From: a virus
Taxonomy: Duplodnaviria; Heunggongvirae; Uroviricota; Caudoviricetes
IMG/VR virus record: IMGVR_UViG_3300035034_002381
Location: 1-64,000 of that record
Length of the DNA: 64,000 nucleotides
Strand: one strand, 5' to 3'
Every line of letters starts with the position of its first letter. Positions within the stretch are counted from its first letter, which is position 1. The position numbers and the translations under genes are program-made. This document shows, in pieces, positions 6,492-26,505 of the stretch. The notes under the pieces are model-generated. The model was not told the DNA's origin and searched no databases. It saw only the letters and a program-made list of their open reading frames with translations.

Positions 6492-6527
6492 AAGGAGAGG
6501 CATTTTTGCCTCTCCTTTTTTTATGTT
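6492..6527 (+). terminator. Rho-independent terminator (aaggagaggca-ttttt-gcctctcctt plus TTTTTTT)
   Basis: Perfect 11-bp stem followed by a T-run, immediately after the Ro60 ORF. Confidence 0.8.
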
Positions 6528-6576
6528 TAAAACTATATCAATCTTAGATATATAATACAAATAAATTAAATTAAAT

Positions 6577-17119: not shown

Positions 17120-19195
17120 ATGAACAAAGATTCTAATGTATTATTAATACTTGAAAGATCTTCATCAAATCTAGATGTTAACAAGGAATCGGGTGATTAT
17201 ATTCTCGAAGGTATTTTTGCTCAATTTGGAGTTGAAAACAATAACAAAAGGATTTATGAGGAAAAAGAGTATTTACCACATCTCGAATACTTAAAAAAGA
17301 AAATTTCAGAAAATCGATTGATGGGAGAACTTGATCACCCAGAAAAATTTGAAATTGCTTTAGACAAAGTATCTCACGTAATTGAGAATATTGAATATGA
17401 TCAAGCAAAACGCCAGATTAAAGGGCGTGTACGTATTTTAGATACGCCATCCGGAAAAATCGCAAAGAGTCTAATCGACTCTAATATTCCTATTAGTATT
17501 TCATCACGAGCTGCTGGTTCTGTGAGTGAAAATAAAACTGTTTCTATTAAGAGAATTTTTACTTATGATTTAGTTGCTGATCCAGGTTTTGAAGATGCAC
17601 AATTATCAAGAATAAATGAATCATTTGGTTTAGACAACGAAAATAATCTACAAATTTTTGATGCTTCTAGATGGGACAACAATTTTTCGTTTGATGAAAA
17701 AGAAAAAGAAAAGCCTGTTGAGGCAATAAAAGAAAATAAAGAAAATACTACAGATATGAAAGAATTTGTGACAATTGAAAGCATGGAACGCTATTCATTA
17801 ATGGTCAAAGAAGAAATTGCTAAAATCAATACACGATTAGAAACTCTGAATGAGAGTAATGCTAATTCTGATGAAACAGCAGAACTTAGAAAAACCGTTG
17901 ATAATTTAGTAGGGTATGTTAATGAAATGGCTACCGAAATTAATCAAAACAGAGAATACATGTCATATACTGCTGAAATGCTTGACGAAAGTATTTCTTG
18001 GTCAGAAAATGAGATCGGTAATCAAGTTACTAAATTAATTGAATATACTGAATCTGAATTGGCTGTTCATCTTGATGGTTTAATTGAACACAATAACTAT
18101 CTTGCAGAAAAATTAAACACGACTATTGGATACGTTAATGAAGAATTGGCTCCAATTTTAGATGAGTCTATTAATCACAATGATTATTTAGTTGAACAAA
18201 TTGCTAATAACCGAAAATATACTGAGTATCTTGCTGAAAATGCTGTAGACTCAACAAATTTTGATTCGTTAGTAGAATATACTGAACATGTATATGAAAA
18301 TGCTGCTGGAAAATTTGAAGGTAAAATTAATGAATCTGCAACTGCTGAGGATGTAATTAAAAAACATAAACTTAAAACACATCACGATGTTGCTAAGTTT
18401 ATAGGAGATTTTTATGATTTACCAGATACAATTAAAGGATCTACCGATAAATTCACATTTAAAGACGTTGAGGACAACGTAATTAAAGTTGATGGTAAAG
18501 CAGGAACAGTAGACGGTAAAAAATTATCTCTGGCGGGATTGGTTGATCTTATGTCAGGTGGTGATTTTGATCTTCTTATTGAAAATCAAGCTAATAAAAT
18601 TAACGAAAATAAAAACGTATCAACAGATATTGAAAATCGATACATGAGTATCAATGAAAAAATTGACGCGGCTCTTGAGCAGATCAAGAAAACAAAGACT
18701 GAAGAAATCACAGAGTCTAAACGTCATCCTTTCACCAAACTACTCAACGAAAGTAATAGAGCTGCTTTCACTGAGTTAGGAAAAACCGAAAAAGAAAAGG
18801 TTTCAAAAGCTCTAAATGAAAACGGTATTTTAAGTACTGTAAAACTTAACGAAAAATTCACTTCATTGTTAGAAGGTAATTTCGAAATTGTTGAAGAGCC
18901 TAAATGGTTATCTGAAGCACCAGACAAGTATAAAGCTATTTTTGAAAGTTTGAATGAGGAAACTCAGGATAAACTTAGAGCTCAAGCTTCATGGTACGAA
19001 GGTAAACTTAAATCTCCTTATCAAATCGAAAATTTCTGGGCAACTAGAGGACTGAACGAAGACGTTGAGTTGAAGAATCTGAAAGACGATGCTGATGTAA
19101 AACTTATTAAAGAAAGTAATGATAGATCTAAAGATCTGGGTTATTCTTCTGATCGAGTTGCTGCAATTAAACAAGGTCTGAAAAGATTCAAATAA
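17120..19195 (+). CDS. Probable prohead protease fused to a scaffolding-type coiled-coil domain
   Basis: Sits immediately upstream of the major capsid gene. The N-terminal roughly 200 aa contain EGIFAQFGVENNNKRIYEEKEY...GELDHPE (T4 gp21 / S77-like). The rest is an acidic, heptad-rich segment typical of scaffold proteins. Confidence 0.5.
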   Translation: MNKDSNVLLILERSSSNLDVNKESGDYILEGIFAQFGVENNNKRIYEEKEYLPHLEYLKKKISENRLMGELDHPEKFEIALDKVSHVIENIEYDQAKRQIKGRVRILDTPSGKIAKSLIDSNIPISISSRAAGSVSENKTVSIKRIFTYDLVADPGFEDAQLSRINESFGLDNENNLQIFDASRWDNNFSFDEKEKEKPVEAIKENKENTTDMKEFVTIESMERYSLMVKEEIAKINTRLETLNESNANSDETAELRKTVDNLVGYVNEMATEINQNREYMSYTAEMLDESISWSENEIGNQVTKLIEYTESELAVHLDGLIEHNNYLAEKLNTTIGYVNEELAPILDESINHNDYLVEQIANNRKYTEYLAENAVDSTNFDSLVEYTEHVYENAAGKFEGKINESATAEDVIKKHKLKTHHDVAKFIGDFYDLPDTIKGSTDKFTFKDVEDNVIKVDGKAGTVDGKKLSLAGLVDLMSGGDFDLLIENQANKINENKNVSTDIENRYMSINEKIDAALEQIKKTKTEEITESKRHPFTKLLNESNRAAFTELGKTEKEKVSKALNENGILSTVKLNEKFTSLLEGNFEIVEEPKWLSEAPDKYKAIFESLNEETQDKLRAQASWYEGKLKSPYQIENFWATRGLNEDVELKNLKDDADVKLIKESNDRSKDLGYSSDRVAAIKQGLKRFK

Positions 19196-19213
19196 AAAAT
19201 AATTTCATAATAA

Positions 19214-21007
19214 ATGAAACTTTTAAACGAACAAAAGATCTATGATGAGTGGGCTCCTATGCTAGAGGAGGAAACTTCAATCAAAGATTCTTCAAAATTG
19301 GGATGGATGACTAAATATTGTCACTACCATTCATTAAATGAAGCATTCACTGCACCTGCAGCTGGATTGCTTAACACGCCAGGTATGGGTAATGTAACTC
19401 CTGCTGGAGCTGCTGCCGGTGGTGCTAATGCATTCTACGGAAGTACTACTACTGGTTCAGGAGATAAATTCCCTTCATTATTGCCACTATCTATTCAGGT
19501 AGCTGCAAGAACTGTAGGATTTGATATCGTTCCTGTTATTCCTATGAACGGACCTTCGGGGGTTCTTACATACATGGATTATGTCTATGCTGGTGGAAAA
19601 GGAGCATTCGGAGCACCTCCAGGTGCTGCAGGTGCTGCAAACCCAGGTCTTAACGCTTACGCTGACAAGCCGTTAGTATTCAAAATCCAACTTGTTGGAG
19701 ATGAGAAAACTGCTTTCGATGCTGCTGCTGCGGGTGATGAATTCTTATTTGCTTCTGGTGCACTTGCTGCAACTGGAAACACACTACGTGTTGCTAAAAT
19801 CGGTCCTTCTAGAATCGACGGTCACTCTATTTTTAGAGTAATTGGAGAATCTGGTGATGCTGATGCGACTGGCGGTGCAGCTGCTGCTGTAGCGACAACT
19901 CTTACATCGCCACAATCTATCACATTGGCTTCTGTATTTACAGGAACTGCTGCGATGATTACTGCGGCTGGTGCTTTAGTTGATGCTGCTGATTCAGTAG
20001 TTAATCGTCCAGAACTTGTTAAAGCTCTTGAAGATCACGTTCAAGGTTTTGCTGGTGCAGGTCCAAACGATGATGAAGCATGGTCAGGAAATGCGACTGA
20101 TGGTACTGTATCTTACGAACCAATGCGAAGAGGTGTAGGTGAAGAGCAGTACTTCAGAACTATGGGACTTCAAGCTTTCACGAAATTCATTGAAGCTGAA
20201 ACTTTCCAAGTTGCTGCTAATGTTACTACAGAACAAATTCAAGATTTACAACGTCAGTATGGAATCGATGTGATTGCAATGATCGAGAACTCATTAGTAA
20301 ATGATATCTCTCAATCTATTAACAAGCACATTCTTTCTAGAGCTTTCGCTCTTGGATGGGGTGCAAACCTTACATTCAGAGATGTTGAAGGTGCAAACCT
20401 TAACCTTGAATTGGTAAACACTGGAACTGGTGTTACTGCAACTCCTGCTTACATTGATAAGACTGGAGTAGGTACTGCATCTGTATATCCTGCTTTCCAA
20501 GAATTTGCTGGAGCTGCTGCTGCTGCATCATTGGAAAACCAAGCAACATTCCAACGAAGAGTATATTCTAAAGTACTTGCTGCTGGAAACGTTGTTACTC
20601 AAAGAGGACGTAGAGGACCTGCAAACTTCATTGTTACTAACCTTCAGTTAGCGACAGCGTTGCAAGATTCTGCACAATTCTCTTGGGCACCAATGGCAAA
20701 CACCATTAACCAAAACAACGGTTCGCTTTACCCAGTGGGTACTGTAGCCGGAATGACTGTTTATGTAGATCCTAACATGGGATTCTCTGATAACAGAATT
20801 CTTGTTGGACGTAAAGGTGCTGATGAAGAACCAGGACTTAAATTCATGCCTTACTTAATGGCTGAATCAATCCAAACAATTGCTGAAGGTACAATGGCTC
20901 CGAAAGTTGCCGTAAAATCACGTTATGCTTTAGTTGAAGCTGGACACCACCCAGAAACAATGTACTTTACTATTGCAGTAAATGTACCTGTAGGTGGATT
21001 AGTATAA
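19214..21007 (+). CDS. Major capsid protein
   Basis: 597-aa Ala/Gly-rich protein directly after the protease/scaffold gene, followed by a strong terminator, with codon usage typical of highly expressed virion genes. Confidence 0.6.
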   Translation: MKLLNEQKIYDEWAPMLEEETSIKDSSKLGWMTKYCHYHSLNEAFTAPAAGLLNTPGMGNVTPAGAAAGGANAFYGSTTTGSGDKFPSLLPLSIQVAARTVGFDIVPVIPMNGPSGVLTYMDYVYAGGKGAFGAPPGAAGAANPGLNAYADKPLVFKIQLVGDEKTAFDAAAAGDEFLFASGALAATGNTLRVAKIGPSRIDGHSIFRVIGESGDADATGGAAAAVATTLTSPQSITLASVFTGTAAMITAAGALVDAADSVVNRPELVKALEDHVQGFAGAGPNDDEAWSGNATDGTVSYEPMRRGVGEEQYFRTMGLQAFTKFIEAETFQVAANVTTEQIQDLQRQYGIDVIAMIENSLVNDISQSINKHILSRAFALGWGANLTFRDVEGANLNLELVNTGTGVTATPAYIDKTGVGTASVYPAFQEFAGAAAAASLENQATFQRRVYSKVLAAGNVVTQRGRRGPANFIVTNLQLATALQDSAQFSWAPMANTINQNNGSLYPVGTVAGMTVYVDPNMGFSDNRILVGRKGADEEPGLKFMPYLMAESIQTIAEGTMAPKVAVKSRYALVEAGHHPETMYFTIAVNVPVGGLV

Positions 21008-21035
21008 GAAATATCTTAAACTATATAAATACCGA

Positions 21036-21068
21036 GAGGGGATCGAAAGATTCCCTCTTTTTTTTTGC
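21036..21068 (+). terminator. Rho-independent terminator (gagagggg-atcgaaagat-tccctct plus T9)
   Basis: Hairpin plus TTTTTTTTT after the capsid gene. Confidence 0.7.
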
Positions 21069-21116
21069 ATAAAACTTTATTCAATATTGTATATATAATA
21101 TACAATTATTAGAGCC

Positions 21117-22802
21117 ATGAACACTTCAGTCAAAGATATTATAAAAAACGTAAAATCCACCAAAGGTTTAGCAGTAAAAATATCAAATTCAGAAAGTCTA
21201 AATAAAGAACTTTTAGAATTAACCAAATACCTACCAACAGACTCTAGTATATCTGAGCGCATTTATAATATCTTAAATAATATTGATGTACAAAGTCTTT
21301 GTATTTGTGGTGACACATTACCATTCATTAAAATTTCCAAAGGTTACAAAACTTCGTGTGGTAATAAAGAATGTAAGTCGCGAACACGGAGTAATATTAA
21401 TAAAGAATCCAGTAAGAAAATAGACTGGGGCGAATCGATCAATAAACAACAAAAAACCAATTTACAAAAATACGGTTATGTTTCTAATCTTGCATCACCT
21501 AAAGAACGAGAAAAACATAAAGTTATTCTTAAAGAATTGACTGGATATGAACACCCATTACAGAATCCTGAATCTAAAAAGAAAAGACATAACACTTGTA
21601 TAAAAAATCATGGTACATTAAATTTCATCCATTCAAATAAATCAATACAAACGTTACAAGCAAAATATAATACCACTGCCACTAATTGTGCTCAAATACC
21701 CGAAATTCAAGATAGATCTGCCAAAACCCAATCTATAAATGCTGATAAAGCTTTATATCAAAAAATTGATAAAATAAATAAAACTATAATAGATCTTAAT
21801 AAAACAAATGCTAATATTGAGTGTGTGGGTTGTGGTCGTATTATGAATATACATCGGCAAGCACTCAATTATTATATTCGAAATTCTATTGACAATTGTT
21901 GGTCTTGCAACCCTGATTTTTCACCATTTGCCAGTAACAAAGAAAAGATGATTGTTACATGGCTCACTGATATAGGTATCACAAATATTGACACAAATCG
22001 CCGGAGATTTGGTGGTAAAGAAATAGATATTTTCTTAAATGATTATAACCTAGGAATTGAATTCAATGGCACATATTGGCATAGTGAATTACACAAAGAA
22101 AAAAATTACCATTTAAATAAAAAAACATATATTGAGAACTTGGGTTTCAAGTTGATTAATGTTTGGGAAGATGATTGGGAAGATGATATAAAACGTAATA
22201 TAATTCAAAGCAGAATTAAAAATTTAATAAACCTAAATCACCGCAAAATATATGGGCGTAAATGTCAGATAGTTCAAATATCTAACAAAGAAGCTAAAGA
22301 ATTTTATACCAATAATCATATTCAAGGTCATGCTATATCAGAAATTAACTACGCATTAGTATATGATAATGAAATTGTTTCAGTCATGAGCTTTTCTAGT
22401 AAAAATAGATTTTTCATTAAGAAAAATAGGGATAATGAAATAGAGTTGACTAGATTTGCAAATTTGATAGGTGTAAGTGTTTTAGGTGGTTTCTCTAAAC
22501 TATTCAAACATTTTTTGAAAAATAATGACCATGATACCATTATTTCATTTGCAGAATTTGATTGGACTGATGAGACTAATAATGTTTATCTTATGAATGG
22601 TTTTAAATTTTTAGGGAATTCTGGACCATCGTATTCATGGGTTGTTAATGGAAAACGGTTTTCTAGATTTAACTTTTCTAAGCAAAAATTAATCAAAGAA
22701 GGTTATGATAAGAATAAAACAGAAGTCGAAATAATGCACGAAAGAAAATATTATCGAGCTTGGAATAGTGGTAACTTAAAATTTATTTATAATAAATTAT
22801 AA
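21117..22802 (+). CDS. Free-standing homing-endonuclease-like protein: two Cys4 zinc fingers, a Vsr/DUF559-type (PD-(D/E)xK-like) nuclease core and a C-terminal putative DNA-binding region
   Basis: CICGDT...CGNKEC and CVGCGR...CWSCNP zinc fingers. The core IDIFLNDYNLGIEFNGTYWHSELH resembles the Vsr FVDGCFWHGH motif. The gene is inserted between the capsid gene and a recoded copy of the capsid gene 3' end. Confidence 0.55.
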   Translation: MNTSVKDIIKNVKSTKGLAVKISNSESLNKELLELTKYLPTDSSISERIYNILNNIDVQSLCICGDTLPFIKISKGYKTSCGNKECKSRTRSNINKESSKKIDWGESINKQQKTNLQKYGYVSNLASPKEREKHKVILKELTGYEHPLQNPESKKKRHNTCIKNHGTLNFIHSNKSIQTLQAKYNTTATNCAQIPEIQDRSAKTQSINADKALYQKIDKINKTIIDLNKTNANIECVGCGRIMNIHRQALNYYIRNSIDNCWSCNPDFSPFASNKEKMIVTWLTDIGITNIDTNRRRFGGKEIDIFLNDYNLGIEFNGTYWHSELHKEKNYHLNKKTYIENLGFKLINVWEDDWEDDIKRNIIQSRIKNLINLNHRKIYGRKCQIVQISNKEAKEFYTNNHIQGHAISEINYALVYDNEIVSVMSFSSKNRFFIKKNRDNEIELTRFANLIGVSVLGGFSKLFKHFLKNNDHDTIISFAEFDWTDETNNVYLMNGFKFLGNSGPSYSWVVNGKRFSRFNFSKQKLIKEGYDKNKTEVEIMHERKYYRAWNSGNLKFIYNKL

Positions 22803-22821
22803 TATATACAACATATATACT

Positions 22822-22852
22822 TGTTGAGGCGGGTCACCACCCAGAAACAATG
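22822..22852 (+). repeat. 31-bp copy of the capsid gene 3' coding sequence (20935-20965) with 3 substitutions, all synonymous third-codon positions
   Basis: gttgaagctggacaccacccagaaacaatgt versus gttgaggcgggtcaccacccagaaacaatgt. Confidence 0.8.
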
Positions 22853-22857
22853 TTCCC

Positions 22858-22895
22858 TCTTTTTATGTTTAAAACTTATATTAATCTTAGATATA
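22858..22895 (+). promoter_or_regulatory. Copy of the terminator-tail/promoter element also found at 6518-6550 (tttttatgtttaaaac(t)tatat(c/t)aatcttagatatataa)
   Basis: Near-identical 38-bp sequence in two places, each followed by an MK(N/T)..F.EF-type ORF. Confidence 0.6.
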
Positions 22896-23235
22896 TAAAC
22901 TACATATAATCAAATAATATGAAGACATTTAATGAATACGAACAAATCAATGAATCTGGTAATTAAAACTGCACAAAAAATTCAAATAGATCTTAAGAAA
23001 TTTCTTGAAGATGTAGTAATACCAGCATCTAATGGATATGTTAGAAATGAAGGTGATGCAGCTTTATTGTTATACGATATACTTGCACAAAAATATGATA
23101 TTACAACATAGACGCTATGAATGACGACGAAAAAATATAGTTTAAGTTCCAAATTATAGATTTAGTTAAGAAAAATCCCAACAATGAAAAACTGGGTGAA
23201 AAGATTAGATCTTTTACTAAAAATATGATATAAAG

Positions 23236-23484
23236 ATGAAAAACATAAAAGATTTTGGTGAGTTTAAATTAAATGAAAAAAGAAATGAGGCACTGAAAAA
23301 GGTTAAAACATCTTCGACTGTGCTAGATAATTTTGTTATGGATGTATTAAAAACTCAAAAGCTTTATCAAAACGAAATTCCTAAGCTACTTGCTAATGAT
23401 AAAGAATTAATAACTGAATTCAAAGAAGGTCGACAAGCATTTAATGATCTTCGAATATTAAATGATATGCTTGCAAAGAAATAA
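23236..23484 (+). CDS. Small hypothetical protein, MKN-K-F-EF family
   Basis: N-terminus MKNIKDFGEF. Confidence 0.4.
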   Translation: MKNIKDFGEFKLNEKRNEALKKVKTSSTVLDNFVMDVLKTQKLYQNEIPKLLANDKELITEFKEGRQAFNDLRILNDMLAKK

Positions 23485-23492
23485 ATAATACA

Positions 23493-23702
23493 ATGAAAAA
23501 CTTAAAAACATTTGAACAGTTTGTAACTGATAAGCTAATGGAAGGTGCAATGTCTGATATACATCTTATGGCTAAAAATTCTAAAACTATAGAAAATTTT
23601 ATAAAAGCTTTTTATAAAAAATACGATAATAAAGTCAAGAAGGGAAAAAGCACTGATGAATGGATAATCAGTCTATATAATGATATGGAATCAAAAACAT
23701 AA
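23493..23702 (+). CDS. Small hypothetical protein, MKN-K-F-EF family
   Basis: N-terminus MKNLKTFEQF. Confidence 0.4.
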   Translation: MKNLKTFEQFVTDKLMEGAMSDIHLMAKNSKTIENFIKAFYKKYDNKVKKGKSTDEWIISLYNDMESKT

Positions 23703-23711
23703 ATACCACTA

Positions 23712-24743
23712 ATGAAAAATTTAAAAACATTTGAACAATTTGAACTAGAAAATCTTAATGAGAAAGTGGGTTATAATCAAATTTCACACAAAAATAAAAG
23801 TTTTGTAGTTTATAATCATAAAGGAATTGAAGATTTATCTAAAAAATATAAAATTGTCAACCTAAAGAATTCTGTAGGACCTGATATAGAATTTCCTGCA
23901 ATAGCAGAATTAGATAATAATAAACCTTTTATTAGAAACATCTATAGACATGAGCTTGATAAATTAGAAAAAGGAATCTTTTTCGAATCCCATAATTTAG
24001 ACAAAGATGCTAAACTTTTTGAATCTGGAGCGATAACTAAAATTTTGACAGATGCAGGATTTATCAGTTTTGAAGACTCTGATGAATATGATTATGATAT
24101 AGGAATAGGTGGAGTAATTAACACTGTTGATCCAGGTATAGCTAAAGATATAGCAGATGAATTAAATGATAATGGTATATCTGCGAAAGCAAAAAGAGAT
24201 ACTGTAATTGTTGAATCTGTGAATGAGGGAATTTACGCTGATAAACTCGCAAAAGGATTATGGGATGGTGACATGGATTTTTCCGATTTAAGTAAAAGTG
24301 AACAAGACTTAATCGACAAGTTCGTCAAAAGAAATCTTGGTATCTTTAAAGACGAAAGATTTGAGATTCCCTTTCCTGATGAAGCTGCTGACACTGGAGA
24401 GTTTTGGGATGAAATTCAAAAAGATAAAGATTACTCAAAATTTGCAAAGGCTGTTAAAAAAGCAAGTTTGGGTGAAATTGAGTTTGTGAACGAATCTATT
24501 AATCAGATTCCTGGAGAAATACAATTTAATGTTGAACCACATACGTTTCTTAAAGATCCTAGAGAACTAGACAAAGCAGTAGCTGAAGTTGATAAATATT
24601 TAGCGGGCGGTAAAGAAAACATTGGCGGATTTATGATAGATCGATATTTAAAAGATTCTTTTGATCTTGATGCGTTTATTGACTCTGTGCATTTACATTA
24701 CCCTAGACCAATGATTCCTGAAATTCAATCCAAGAATCTATGA
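23712..24743 (+). CDS. Hypothetical acidic protein, MKN-K-F-EF family
   Basis: N-terminus MKNLKTFEQF, identical to the preceding ORF for 10 aa. Confidence 0.45.
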   Translation: MKNLKTFEQFELENLNEKVGYNQISHKNKSFVVYNHKGIEDLSKKYKIVNLKNSVGPDIEFPAIAELDNNKPFIRNIYRHELDKLEKGIFFESHNLDKDAKLFESGAITKILTDAGFISFEDSDEYDYDIGIGGVINTVDPGIAKDIADELNDNGISAKAKRDTVIVESVNEGIYADKLAKGLWDGDMDFSDLSKSEQDLIDKFVKRNLGIFKDERFEIPFPDEAADTGEFWDEIQKDKDYSKFAKAVKKASLGEIEFVNESINQIPGEIQFNVEPHTFLKDPRELDKAVAEVDKYLAGGKENIGGFMIDRYLKDSFDLDAFIDSVHLHYPRPMIPEIQSKNL

Positions 24744-25806: not shown

Positions 25807-26081
25807 TGAAAAAGGCAAGAACATTTACAGAATTTAATGAGTCTATATCAAACGAAGAAGAACTAAATGAAGCAGTCGATGTATTTATCGCAATTGCTGA
25901 AGCTTTAGACGTAAGTTTAGATGTCGCAAAAATGATAGTAGCTTTGGCAGGAGTCACCGGAACAGTAACTTTCGCAGCAGCAATGACAAAAATCCAAGAT
26001 GTATTGGCAAAGAAAAATCCTAAATTATCTAAGAAATTAGGTGATATTACAAAAGGAGCAAATAACGCGAGAACACAATAG
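25806..26081 (+). CDS. Small hypothetical protein
   Basis: N-terminus MKKARTFTEFNE (MK..F.EF family-like). Confidence 0.35.
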   Translation: MKKARTFTEFNESISNEEELNEAVDVFIAIAEALDVSLDVAKMIVALAGVTGTVTFAAAMTKIQDVLAKKNPKLSKKLGDITKGANNARTQ

Positions 26082-26085
26082 AAAT

Positions 26086-26505
26086 ATGGATGATATTAGC
26101 AATGGAGGTGGAATTCTCCAAAAAACAAAGATACTTACAGTAACAAATAAGATTGGTTATGCCAAGAATTCTGAGGGTGTGACTTCTGTATTTGCTAATA
26201 CTGATATTGGAGCAGGCGATCTTATCGAGGTTGCGACCCTTCTAGAAGTTTCAGATATGGTGATGACAAATAGAGAAATTGCTGATCATGTTTTTACAGT
26301 AAATCCAGAAAGTAAACAATATGCGATCGGTTTAGGATTTGCTTGTTTATATCAACATAACGATAAACCTAACGCCGAGTGGAATATACCTAGCGATAAA
26401 AAGGAAATCAGATTTACTGCTAAAGACGACATAAAAAAATCTGAAGAAATCACAATTTCATACGGAAAGAATTATTTCCTAAGTAGAGAAAAGAAAGAGG
26501 AATAA
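26086..26505 (+). CDS. SET-domain protein (putative protein lysine methyltransferase)
   Basis: GFACLYQHNDKPNAEWN matches the RFINHSCxPN motif, and EEITISYGKNYF matches ELTFDYG. Compact at about 140 aa, like viral vSET. The start was moved to the ATG at 26086 to avoid overlap with the upstream ORF. Confidence 0.6.
   Translation: MDDISNGGGILQKTKILTVTNKIGYAKNSEGVTSVFANTDIGAGDLIEVATLLEVSDMVMTNREIADHVFTVNPESKQYAIGLGFACLYQHNDKPNAEWNIPSDKKEIRFTAKDDIKKSEEITISYGKNYFLSREKKEE

Follow-up and report, generated by a model that had tools for sequence, protein, structure and literature searches.

The region behind the major capsid gene is a known hot spot for homing endonuclease genes in phages, and endonuclease genes of families other than the one treated here are enriched near capsid genes (PMC10448857). 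One example is T4 segD, which lies between genes 23 and 24, directly 3' of the gp23 capsid gene (PMC2988022); it encodes a GIY-YIG enzyme, is antisense to both neighbors, and its target is not known. Hef-type phage endonucleases belong to the Vsr-like EDxHD family (PMC3239194). Hef of the T-even phage U5 targets nrdB and no capsid gene (PMC2988022), and I-Bth0305I is an intron-encoded protein of 266 aa with NUMOD motifs (NUMOD/HTH DNA-binding module). For T4 SegF, SegG and MobE, intronless homing proceeds by a cut in a conserved neighboring gene of an endonuclease-less genome, after which repair on the endonuclease-carrying genome copies the endonuclease gene together with flanking markers, replacing the flanking sequence without duplication. 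Another arrangement is found in fungal mitochondria, where endonuclease ORFs brought in a foreign gene 3' end and the native 3' end was left downstream, as in Allomyces atp6 and in Glomus atp6, atp9, cox2 and nad3 (PMC3630166). These hybrid genes of Allomyces macrogynus and Glomus have the layout gene 3' end, endonuclease ORF and second, diverged copy of the 3' end, and the differences between the copies are largely synonymous and have been read as inter-genome transfer (PMC3630166). The elements are mitochondrial LAGLIDADG or GIY-YIG ORFs, often fused in frame to the gene, and they keep the complete native C-terminus downstream.

Here, we describe a locus in the window (the whole 64,000-nt stretch of phage DNA that was analyzed) at which a Hef-type endonuclease gene stands behind a gp23-like capsid gene and is itself followed by 33 nt of a capsid gene. 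On sequence grounds, this fragment is a recombination scar, the leftover of a related phage's capsid gene, and no new kind of system. The endonuclease gene occupies the same slot as segD, but it is co-oriented with the capsid gene, has its own promoter-like element and belongs to another nuclease family. The mechanism proposed below is that of SegF, SegG and MobE; unlike in those cases, part of the capsid gene is duplicated behind the endonuclease gene, and comparison with the closest relative reveals no co-conversion gradient. The layout is the one described for Allomyces and Glomus, and as in Allomyces atp6 a second, diverged 3' copy with mainly synonymous differences lies downstream. The locus departs from the mitochondrial ones in having a phage EDxHD gene with its own terminator and promoter, and in that 11 codons of the second copy are left, joined to a terminator 3' arm.

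A Hef-type endonuclease gene behind the capsid gene

The upstream part of the locus comprises the following features.

19214-21007, + strand: major capsid protein gene, T4 gp23-like, 597 aa (Pfam Gp23, E 4e-35)
21034-21066, + strand: intrinsic capsid-gene terminator, intact, with an 11-bp stem, a GAAA loop and a T-run (3' arm TTCCCTC at 21051-21057)
21072-21116, + strand: promoter-like element plus endonuclease-gene leader, TATATATAATATACAATTATTAGAGCC-ATG (kept in the nearest relative, L031)
21117-22802, + strand: free-standing Hef-type (EDxHD/Vsr-like) homing endonuclease gene, 561 aa (phrog_3339 and 3R3P profile matches)

The capsid ORF is intact, its C-terminus (YFTIAVNVPVGGLV) is of native type and similar to those of relatives, and its terminator folds at -19.9 kcal/mol (z -4.5). 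The endonuclease ORF matches phrog_3339, annotated "homing endonuclease" (E 7e-105), and a profile built from 42 homologues matches the catalytic domain of I-Bth0305I (3R3P, E 6e-5, positions 279-370), the alignment pairing D304 with the catalytic D196 and H322 with H213. Six residues (D304, E315, H322, K335, E351 and D352) are invariant in the 42 homologues, and the annotations of homologues in Campylobacter phages and phage PA5oct read Hef-like or putative homing endonuclease. The Vsr-like ORF that the earlier note had read from the letters exists as described. It belongs to the Hef-type (EDxHD/Vsr-like) homing endonuclease genes and has its catalytic residues intact, and its product would be expected to act as a homing endonuclease.

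The nuclease core (approximately residues 274-355), with its conserved Asp and His residues, is the Vsr-like one shared with Hef of U5 and I-Bth0305I. The remainder of the 561-aa protein differs from I-Bth0305I: the N-terminal 270 residues consist of helical repeats (DUF7487; 27.2 bits against a Pfam cut-off of 27) with conserved Cys pairs and clusters and give no NUMOD match, and an extra GNAT/Mom-like domain forms the C-terminus (approximately 372-561). The N-terminal repeats may bind DNA. Pfam MTES_1575 scores 27.8 bits, under its cut-off of 38.2, and the AF2 model has a pLDDT of 89 and finds fold matches. Between the window and L031, dN of the endonuclease gene is 0.19 whereas dS is saturated, indicating that the protein is under purifying selection.

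As with Hef-like enzymes, the gene is free-standing beside an essential, conserved phage gene, since a scan of 20500-23500 found neither a group I or group II intron nor any further Rfam family, and the capsid ORF upstream is complete. A group I intron-encoded endonuclease was considered and rejected, there being no intron model in this region; moreover, the fragment repeats upstream-exon sequence and does not continue the ORF. The leader contains a TATATAA-type motif similar to the intergenic GATATATAA motifs ahead of structural genes, and the element at 21072-21116 probably serves as a promoter.

Presence and absence among relatives

Two types of endonuclease are found at this site. Type 1 is that of the window and L031 (73% aa identity), and type 2, which is 38-39% identical to type 1, occurs in L032 and L125/L126. 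Endonuclease-less alleles, in which capsid gene, terminator, promoter and next gene follow one another directly, are present in L036, L037/L038, L127/L128 and 11 IMG/VR loci, and most of the 53-55% clade carries no endonuclease gene behind the capsid gene. L032 differs from L036 by a clean insertion between the terminator T-run and the next promoter. The locus is thus polymorphic for the presence of the gene, with conserved flanks. The earlier note had called the gene a mobile cassette and suggested a comparison with relatives lacking the insert; that comparison, run against L036, L037, L127 and the 11 IMG/VR loci, bears out the mobility, with endonuclease-less alleles at this position and two or more endonuclease lineages occupying it. 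Additionally, a gp23-like capsid gene lies immediately upstream in 12/80 IMG/VR loci of the window's endonuclease family, and L034 likewise has a capsid gene followed by a gene of this family. This distribution shows the slot behind gp23-like capsid genes to be a recurrent landing site for the family in very different phages.

A capsid gene fragment behind the endonuclease gene

The features on which the origin of the fragment turns are listed here.

20930-20962, + strand: copy A, capsid codons LVEAGHHPETM, candidate endonuclease target region
22791-22819, + strand: stretch without homology to L031 (last three endonuclease codons, stop codon and 17 nt), with the homology break at 22791
22820-22852, + strand: copy A', a non-coding relic of a diverged capsid allele, codons LVEAGHHPETM (5 silent differences)
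22853-22864, + strand: orphan terminator 3' arm (TTCCCTC) and T-run, without 5' arm or loop, adjoining copy A'
22860-22905, + strand: promoter module for the downstream genes (copy of the one at 6518-6555), with its GATATATAA motif at 22890
22932-23111, + strand: first downstream ORF, 59 aa, of no family (not in L031, where a different small ORF follows)

A 30-mer within the capsid ORF, GTTGAAGCTGGACACCACCCAGAAACAATG (20933-20962), recurs at 22823-22852 with exactly three mismatches, and a second match to it appeared in 0/100 dinucleotide shuffles. The mismatches (gaa>gag, gct>gcg and gga>ggt) all fall on third codon positions and are synonymous, as had been reported for this copy of the codons VEAGHHPETM. 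The copy can be extended by one Leu codon, which is CTT at 22820-22822 as in the capsid genes of L031, L032 and L036, and TTA in the resident gene; over the resulting 33 nt and 11 codons (22820-22852) the five differences are all synonymous. If substitutions fell at random, all would be silent with a probability of 0.006 (3 in 30 nt) or 0.0002 (5 in 33 nt). No ORF covers the fragment. Its codon choices GAG-GCG-GGT occur in the capsid genes of L037, L125 and L001, and among the sampled capsid genes it is matched at best in 30/33 positions, with no exact match; the resident gene matches it in 28/33. Against the L031 capsid gene, the fragment matches in 27/33 positions and the resident copy in 24/33, the latter counted by hand. 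Differences confined to silent sites indicate that the fragment stems from a capsid allele that diverged under selection in another, related phage, and that it thereby records recombination with that phage; the derivation from a related phage's capsid gene put forward in the earlier note is upheld at these probabilities. The stretch just upstream (22791-22819), compared in register with capsid sequences, reaches at best 16/29 (p about 0.04, marginal) and may be a degenerate continuation of the relic.

On its downstream side, the fragment abuts TTCCCTC (22853-22859) and a T-run, which match 21051-21066, the 3' arm in the terminator of the resident capsid gene. Relative to the upstream arrangement, 88 nt are absent between the fragment and this arm. 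The remnant does not fold (-9.3 kcal/mol, z +0.44), whereas L031 has, at the orthologous position, the 3' arm of a hairpin that is intact. The sequence behind the copy had been taken for a truncated 6518-6550 element; this applies to 22860-22898, which matches 6518-6555 at 94.9% over 39 nt, but the first 7 nt and the T-run belong to the capsid terminator and not to the stem at 6493-6516.

Comparison with L031 also bears on the age of the fragment. The two genomes are homologous over 18619-22791; homology is then lost and picks up again at 22852. The L031 endonuclease gene is orthologous and as diverged as its flanks, and it is followed by an intact terminator, without any significant capsid fragment. 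Of the 13 loci in which a Hef-like endonuclease gene follows a capsid gene, the window alone has a significant capsid fragment after the endonuclease gene (0/12 others). The fragment is undecayed, with no replacement-position changes in 33 nt, which at a window-L031 dS of at least 0.73 indicates that it is young. Given this and its absence from L031, the fragment is likely younger than the residence of the endonuclease gene at the capsid site, although it could date from the arrival of the gene if the window acquired it recently from an unsampled donor. No relative closer than L031 was found. Window and L031 show neither a tract of raised identity around the endonuclease gene nor a discontinuity in the capsid 3' end, L031, at 76% nt identity, being too diverged for a recent donor or recipient.

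One-sided repair as the probable origin

We consider it most probable, at roughly 0.6, that the fragment goes back to one-sided repair, in which the 3' end of a capsid gene was displaced to a position behind the endonuclease gene. By analogy with characterized free-standing phage homing endonucleases, the enzyme would be expressed late, driven by the gene's promoter-like element, and co-infecting endonuclease-less relatives would be cut in the 3' region of their capsid gene; repair of the break would copy the endonuclease gene into them. In the event envisaged here, the left end of the broken capsid gene would recombine homologously with an endonuclease-carrying genome, and everything from a capsid 3' end through terminator and promoter to the endonuclease gene would be copied in, whereas the right end, starting near the Leu-Val-Glu-Ala-Gly codons, would be joined without homology just past the stop codon of the endonuclease ORF. 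In this way the 3' end of the broken genome's capsid gene would come to lie downstream, and a subsequent deletion of approximately 88 nt would have removed its last 14 codons and stop codon together with the terminator's 5' arm and loop. This scenario needs two steps (the join and then the 88-nt deletion) or a more complex single event, and it does not account for the 17-29 nt that separate the fragment from the endonuclease gene.

A target in the capsid gene, the roles of donor and recipient and the order of the steps are presumptive, and the target could lie elsewhere, e.g., in the terminator or the intergenic region. In the capsid 3' region, DNA conservation is strongest in the island that holds copy A, where 19-23 nt around CACCACCCAGAAACAATGT are identical between phages with only approximately 53% capsid protein identity; no substitution pattern peculiar to endonuclease-bearing genomes was seen in this island. 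The suggestions of the earlier note that the fragment marks the target site of the enzyme and that the wobble changes may shield this genome from self-cleavage are plausible. More tentatively, and with odds somewhat against it, the fragment would be the displaced native capsid 3' end, and the functional capsid gene would be of hybrid origin, its final 25 or so codons, or more, having come from another phage together with the endonuclease gene.

The earlier note had instead seen co-conversion tracts that came in with the endonuclease gene. Co-conversion would have replaced sequence within the functional capsid gene itself, whereas the fragment duplicates capsid sequence and lies displaced on the far side of the endonuclease gene. 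Arrival as donor flanking DNA, with the resident capsid gene native throughout, would account for silent differences that point to another capsid allele and for codon choices typical of other family members, and as repair copies everything between the crossovers, a prior scar would be carried along. We nevertheless regard it as unlikely: the orthologous gene of L031 has diverged along with its flanks without any such fragment and with its terminator intact, the fragment itself is undecayed, the 12 other capsid-plus-endonuclease loci lack one, and the problem is merely shifted to the donor, in which some event must still have put capsid DNA behind the endonuclease gene.

That the fragment is a functional element bound by the endonuclease (an operator of the adjacent promoter, a decoy or a homology arm for homing) is considerably less probable. 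I-TevI does use a sequence similar to its homing site to repress its own promoter (PMC2988022), and the fragment is undecayed and sits directly upstream of the promoter module at 22860-22905. However, L031 does without it despite an orthologous endonuclease gene and the same promoter module, as does every other capsid-plus-endonuclease locus examined, and as a homology arm 33 nt would be very short and wrongly placed with respect to the missing 88 nt. Slippage or unequal crossover that copied the phage's own capsid 3' end, followed by drift, has still less in its favor: short direct repeats are common around insertions and the two copies are 85-90% identical, but neutral drift would not strike synonymous positions alone (P 0.006 to 0.0002), and the variant codons equal those in other phages' capsid genes. 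An assembly artefact made of two strains is hardly credible, for although the window comes from a metagenome (ENA contig, k141 assembly) and several related contigs break off just behind the capsid gene, pointing to strain polymorphism there, the span from endonuclease end through fragment to promoter is under 141 nt, such that k-mers crossing both junctions must exist in the reads, and the endonuclease protein, on record in ENA, JGI and Logan, is identical in three contigs with mostly the same neighboring genes, the fragment being read in the window only.

Implications

The locus leaves current understanding unchanged: it is a well-documented instance of an ordinary element with a neat footprint, and no new principle is involved. 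If the fragment is in fact the native 3' end, the "hybrid gene" mechanism of fungal mitochondria would be acting on an essential phage structural gene, and the left edge of the fragment (approximately 22808-22822, Tyr-Ala-Leu|Val-Glu) would mark the in vivo cleavage position of a Hef-type enzyme within a few bases. Homing endonuclease genes are a main cause of phage genome mosaicism, and the targets of the Hef type are almost entirely unknown; the locus offers a specific candidate, the conserved coding island ...SRYALVEAGHHPETM... at the capsid 3' end. It also provides a natural example of how imperfect repair at the boundary of an endonuclease gene can leave pieces of another phage's essential gene.

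Layout of the capsid locus

The window has a G+C content of 32% and carries a T4-like head module, in which the major capsid gene is followed by an endonuclease gene and then by a second, partial copy of capsid codons:

17120-19195, fused prohead protease/scaffold gene (Peptidase_S77/S80)
19214-21007, gp23-like major capsid gene (Pfam Gp23, E 4e-35)
21034-21059 (stem), with a T-run to 21066, strong intrinsic terminator of the capsid gene (-19.9 kcal/mol, z -4.5)
between this terminator and the next ORF, TATATAA-type promoter-like element
21117-22802, endonuclease ORF (561 aa)
22820-22852, capsid fragment CTTGTTGAGGCGGGTCACCACCCAGAAACAATG, starting 17 bases past the endonuclease stop codon
22853-22864, TTCCCTC-TTTTT, directly 3' of the fragment
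22860-22898, promoter module following TTCCCTC-TTTTT, sharing 95% identity with the module at 6518-6555 over 39 nt

The fragment has a 30-nt core that matches the resident capsid codons (20933-20962) with exactly three mismatches, all of them silent third-base changes, and a second match of this kind arose in none of 100 shuffles, confirming the copy that the earlier note had described behind the endonuclease ORF. The description holds overall except for the origin of the seven bases adjoining the copy, which had been assigned to a truncated copy of the terminator/promoter element near 6518: TTCCCTC with its T-run derives from the capsid gene's own terminator, of which it is the 3' arm (21051-21066). 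Compared with the layout at the capsid gene itself, the downstream copy lacks 88 nt, which hold the final 14 codons with their stop codon, a spacer, and the 5' arm and loop of the terminator; what remains does not fold. Formation of a new terminator hairpin between the wobble changes and the TTCCCTC arm was ruled out (-9.3 kcal/mol, with shuffles performing as well), and the evidence that the fragment reaches further upstream, to 22791, was marginal (p ~0.04) and was set aside.

The intergenic module recurs in the window (6493-6560, 17091, 22853-22905, 46766, 50448, 52026 and 62590) as a hairpin, a T-run and ATGTTTAAAAC..., followed by GATATATAA about 30-40 nt ahead of a start codon; it probably represents a terminator paired with a late promoter. 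Downstream of such modules lies a family of small ORFs starting MKN(L/I/V)K.F.(E/Q)F (6578-, 23236-23484, 23493-23702 and 23712-24743; ~11847 in L031, the closest relative carrying the orthologous endonuclease gene). L031 has a different set from the window, making this a variable gene cluster directly after the endonuclease slot.

Occupancy of the post-capsid slot

IMG/VR and the protein collection supplied the relatives of the capsid gene. Two endonuclease lineages, type 1 and type 2, were found behind it.

Content of the slot in the window and its relatives, with capsid amino acid identity to the window
Window: type-1 endonuclease gene plus fragment
L031 (85%): type-1 endonuclease gene, 73% aa identity
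L032 (76%): type-2 endonuclease gene
L036 (73%): no endonuclease gene
L037/L038 (70%): no endonuclease gene
L125/L126 (66%): type-2 endonuclease gene, 62% to that of L032 and 38-39% to type 1
L127/L128 (65%): no endonuclease gene
Eleven IMG/VR loci (53-55% capsid clade): no endonuclease gene; order capsid-terminator-promoter-next gene

Endonuclease-less alleles thus exist (L036, L037/L038, L127/L128 and the eleven IMG/VR loci), in agreement with the proposal of a mobile cassette. L032 and L036 align collinearly, at 82%, as far as the terminator T-run extends, beyond which L032 has a 1.6-kb endonuclease cassette and L036 has 65 nt, with homology resuming at the next promoter. In L036 (3175-3220) the shared promoter is joined to CTAAAGTAG, the exact sequence of the final three codons (Leu-Lys-stop) in the endonuclease gene of L032 (7400-7444). 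It may have been left behind when an endonuclease gene was lost, or it may be pre-existing sequence recruited as the ORF end.

A SET-domain protein is encoded directly after the capsid gene in L036 and after the endonuclease gene in L125/L126; a 154-aa ORF about 3 kb further downstream in the window (26041-26505) is, by appearance, a candidate counterpart. Additionally, related phages are represented by three independent metagenomic contigs (L129, L130, L131) that end within ~10-110 nt of the capsid stop codon, which suggests that assemblies break at a polymorphic, repeat-bearing site behind the capsid gene.

The endonuclease

The product of ORF 21117-22802 matches phrog_3339, 'homing endonuclease', in PHROGs (E 7e-105), and in Pfam it hits DUF7487, with REase_MTES_1575 below threshold. 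A profile of 42 homologues aligns with the catalytic domain of I-Bth0305I (sequence of crystal structure 3R3P, E 6e-5), pairing D304 and H322 with the two catalytic residues mutated in that structure; D304, E315, H322, K335, E351 and D352 are invariant in the 42 homologues. The Vsr-like 'EDxHD' family includes phage Hef-type enzymes (Taylor et al., PMC3239194). Homologues in GenBank phages carry Hef-like homing endonuclease annotations, and the viral fold matches are annotated homing endonucleases.

The AF2 model (pLDDT 89) shows an additional GNAT-fold domain in the C-terminal third (residues ~372-561, window 22230-22802), which among solved structures is most similar to phage Mu Mom (8bv8, Foldseek E 2e-6); Mom and NAT_SF proteins are also among its viral fold matches. 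Within this domain R381, H401, E443, R446, G457 and S460 are invariant in the 42 homologues. A link between a Hef-type endonuclease and a Mom-like domain was not found in the literature. A search of 20500-23500 for group I introns and further RNA families found none, indicating a free-standing gene, and the window holds no second copy of it.

Origin and age of the fragment

Adding the Leu codon (CTT in the fragment, TTA in the resident gene) gives eleven codons with five silent differences; CTT is the codon used in the L031, L032 and L036 capsid genes. In simulations, the probability that all random changes are silent was 0.006 for three changes in 30 nt and 0.0002 for five in 33 nt. Differences confined to silent positions indicate that both copies were still coding as they diverged, and thus that the fragment comes from the capsid gene of another phage. 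The fragment codons GAG-GCG-GGT also occur in the capsid genes of L037, L125 and L001 (comparison loci). None of the sampled capsid genes matches the fragment exactly (best 30/33), and neither the exact fragment nor a clade-specific degenerate pattern led to a source in metagenome contigs, the scans returning nothing or just chance matches in high-GC bacterial contigs. No close relative of the window phage was found among GenBank phages.

We consider it probable, at roughly 0.6, that a Hef-type gene stands behind the capsid gene together with a fragment of another phage's capsid gene that arrived through an illegitimate join. The specific version that we favour, a one-sided repair event, is more tentative and somewhat less likely than not. 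A capsid gene would have been broken near the Leu-Val-Glu-Ala-Gly codons and its left end repaired on an endonuclease-carrying genome, so that a capsid 3' end, terminator, promoter and endonuclease gene were copied in; the right end would have been joined without homology just past the endonuclease stop codon, and the displaced capsid 3' end would later have been trimmed by a deletion reaching the terminator 3' arm. The resulting layout is that of the endonuclease-ORF hybrid genes atp6 of Allomyces and atp6, atp9, cox2 and nad3 of Glomus (PMC3630166).

The main alternative, less likely in our view, is that the fragment came with the cassette from the donor, close to the co-conversion tract that the earlier note had proposed. 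Of the 13 loci that combine a capsid gene with an endonuclease gene, the window is the sole one in which a capsid fragment after the endonuclease gene reaches significance, and such fragments were rejected as a family-wide feature owing to their absence from the 12 others; by this comparison the fragment is specific to the window lineage. From 18619 to 22791 the window aligns collinearly with L031 at 76%; homology then stops and returns at 22852. In this comparison no tract of raised identity surrounds the endonuclease gene, and no recent transfer is visible between these two lineages. Less likely readings are a self-duplication of the resident gene (28/33 matches to the fragment), a functional operator in this stretch, which no ORF covers, and an assembly artefact.

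The corresponding position in L031 holds a complete hairpin, again with GTTCCCT as its 3' arm. The last capsid codons, as GTGGATTAGT, adjoin the TTCCCTC arm in L031, which prompted the idea of an ancient shared relic shaped by nested deletions of one old duplication. This was rejected because the match in L031 falls short of significance (p 0.14), GTGGATTAGT forms the loop of that complete hairpin, and decay would be expected in a relic of such age. A gapped likeness of the post-endonuclease region of L034, another endonuclease locus, to its own capsid end was likewise not significant. With dS between the window and L031 at least 0.73, a non-coding copy as old as their split should have about nine replacement changes; the fragment has none, which suggests that it is young.

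Candidate target and recurrent landing site

A DNA island of 19-23 nt (GGTCACCACCCAGAAACAATGTA, window 20942-20964) recurs at the equivalent capsid positions of L002-L026 and is nearly invariant in nucleotides, silent positions included, between phages that share only ~53% capsid protein identity. The stretch around CACCACCCAGAAACAATGT is identical at this level of capsid divergence, making it, from conservation, an attractive candidate target of the endonuclease. Self-protection through the wobble changes had also been suggested; within the island, no substitution tracks the presence or absence of the endonuclease gene across genomes.

A gp23-like capsid gene lies immediately upstream in ~12 of the best 80 IMG/VR loci of the endonuclease family, in very different phages (L039, L045, L064, L070/L071, L088, L100, L102, L105, L109), and L034 is a further case; together these mark the slot as a recurrent landing site. 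L109 has two endonuclease genes of this family in tandem behind its capsid gene. The same slot is used in T4, with segD between genes 23 and 24 (PMC2988022), and other endonuclease families also occur near capsid genes (PMC10448857). In L033 (2881-2938), P0123, the closest endonuclease to type 1 outside the clade (44%), is convergent with a reverse-strand 514-aa gene. Sequence encoding ...SRYALVEAGFHPETM is present somewhere in that locus, so the 514-aa gene may be a capsid gene; if so, the arrangement would recall the antisense segD of T4. As far as its sequence goes, the window gene is ordinary: it is free-standing, belongs to a known family of homing endonucleases and sits in a known type of location, with a recombination scar that is unusually legible.
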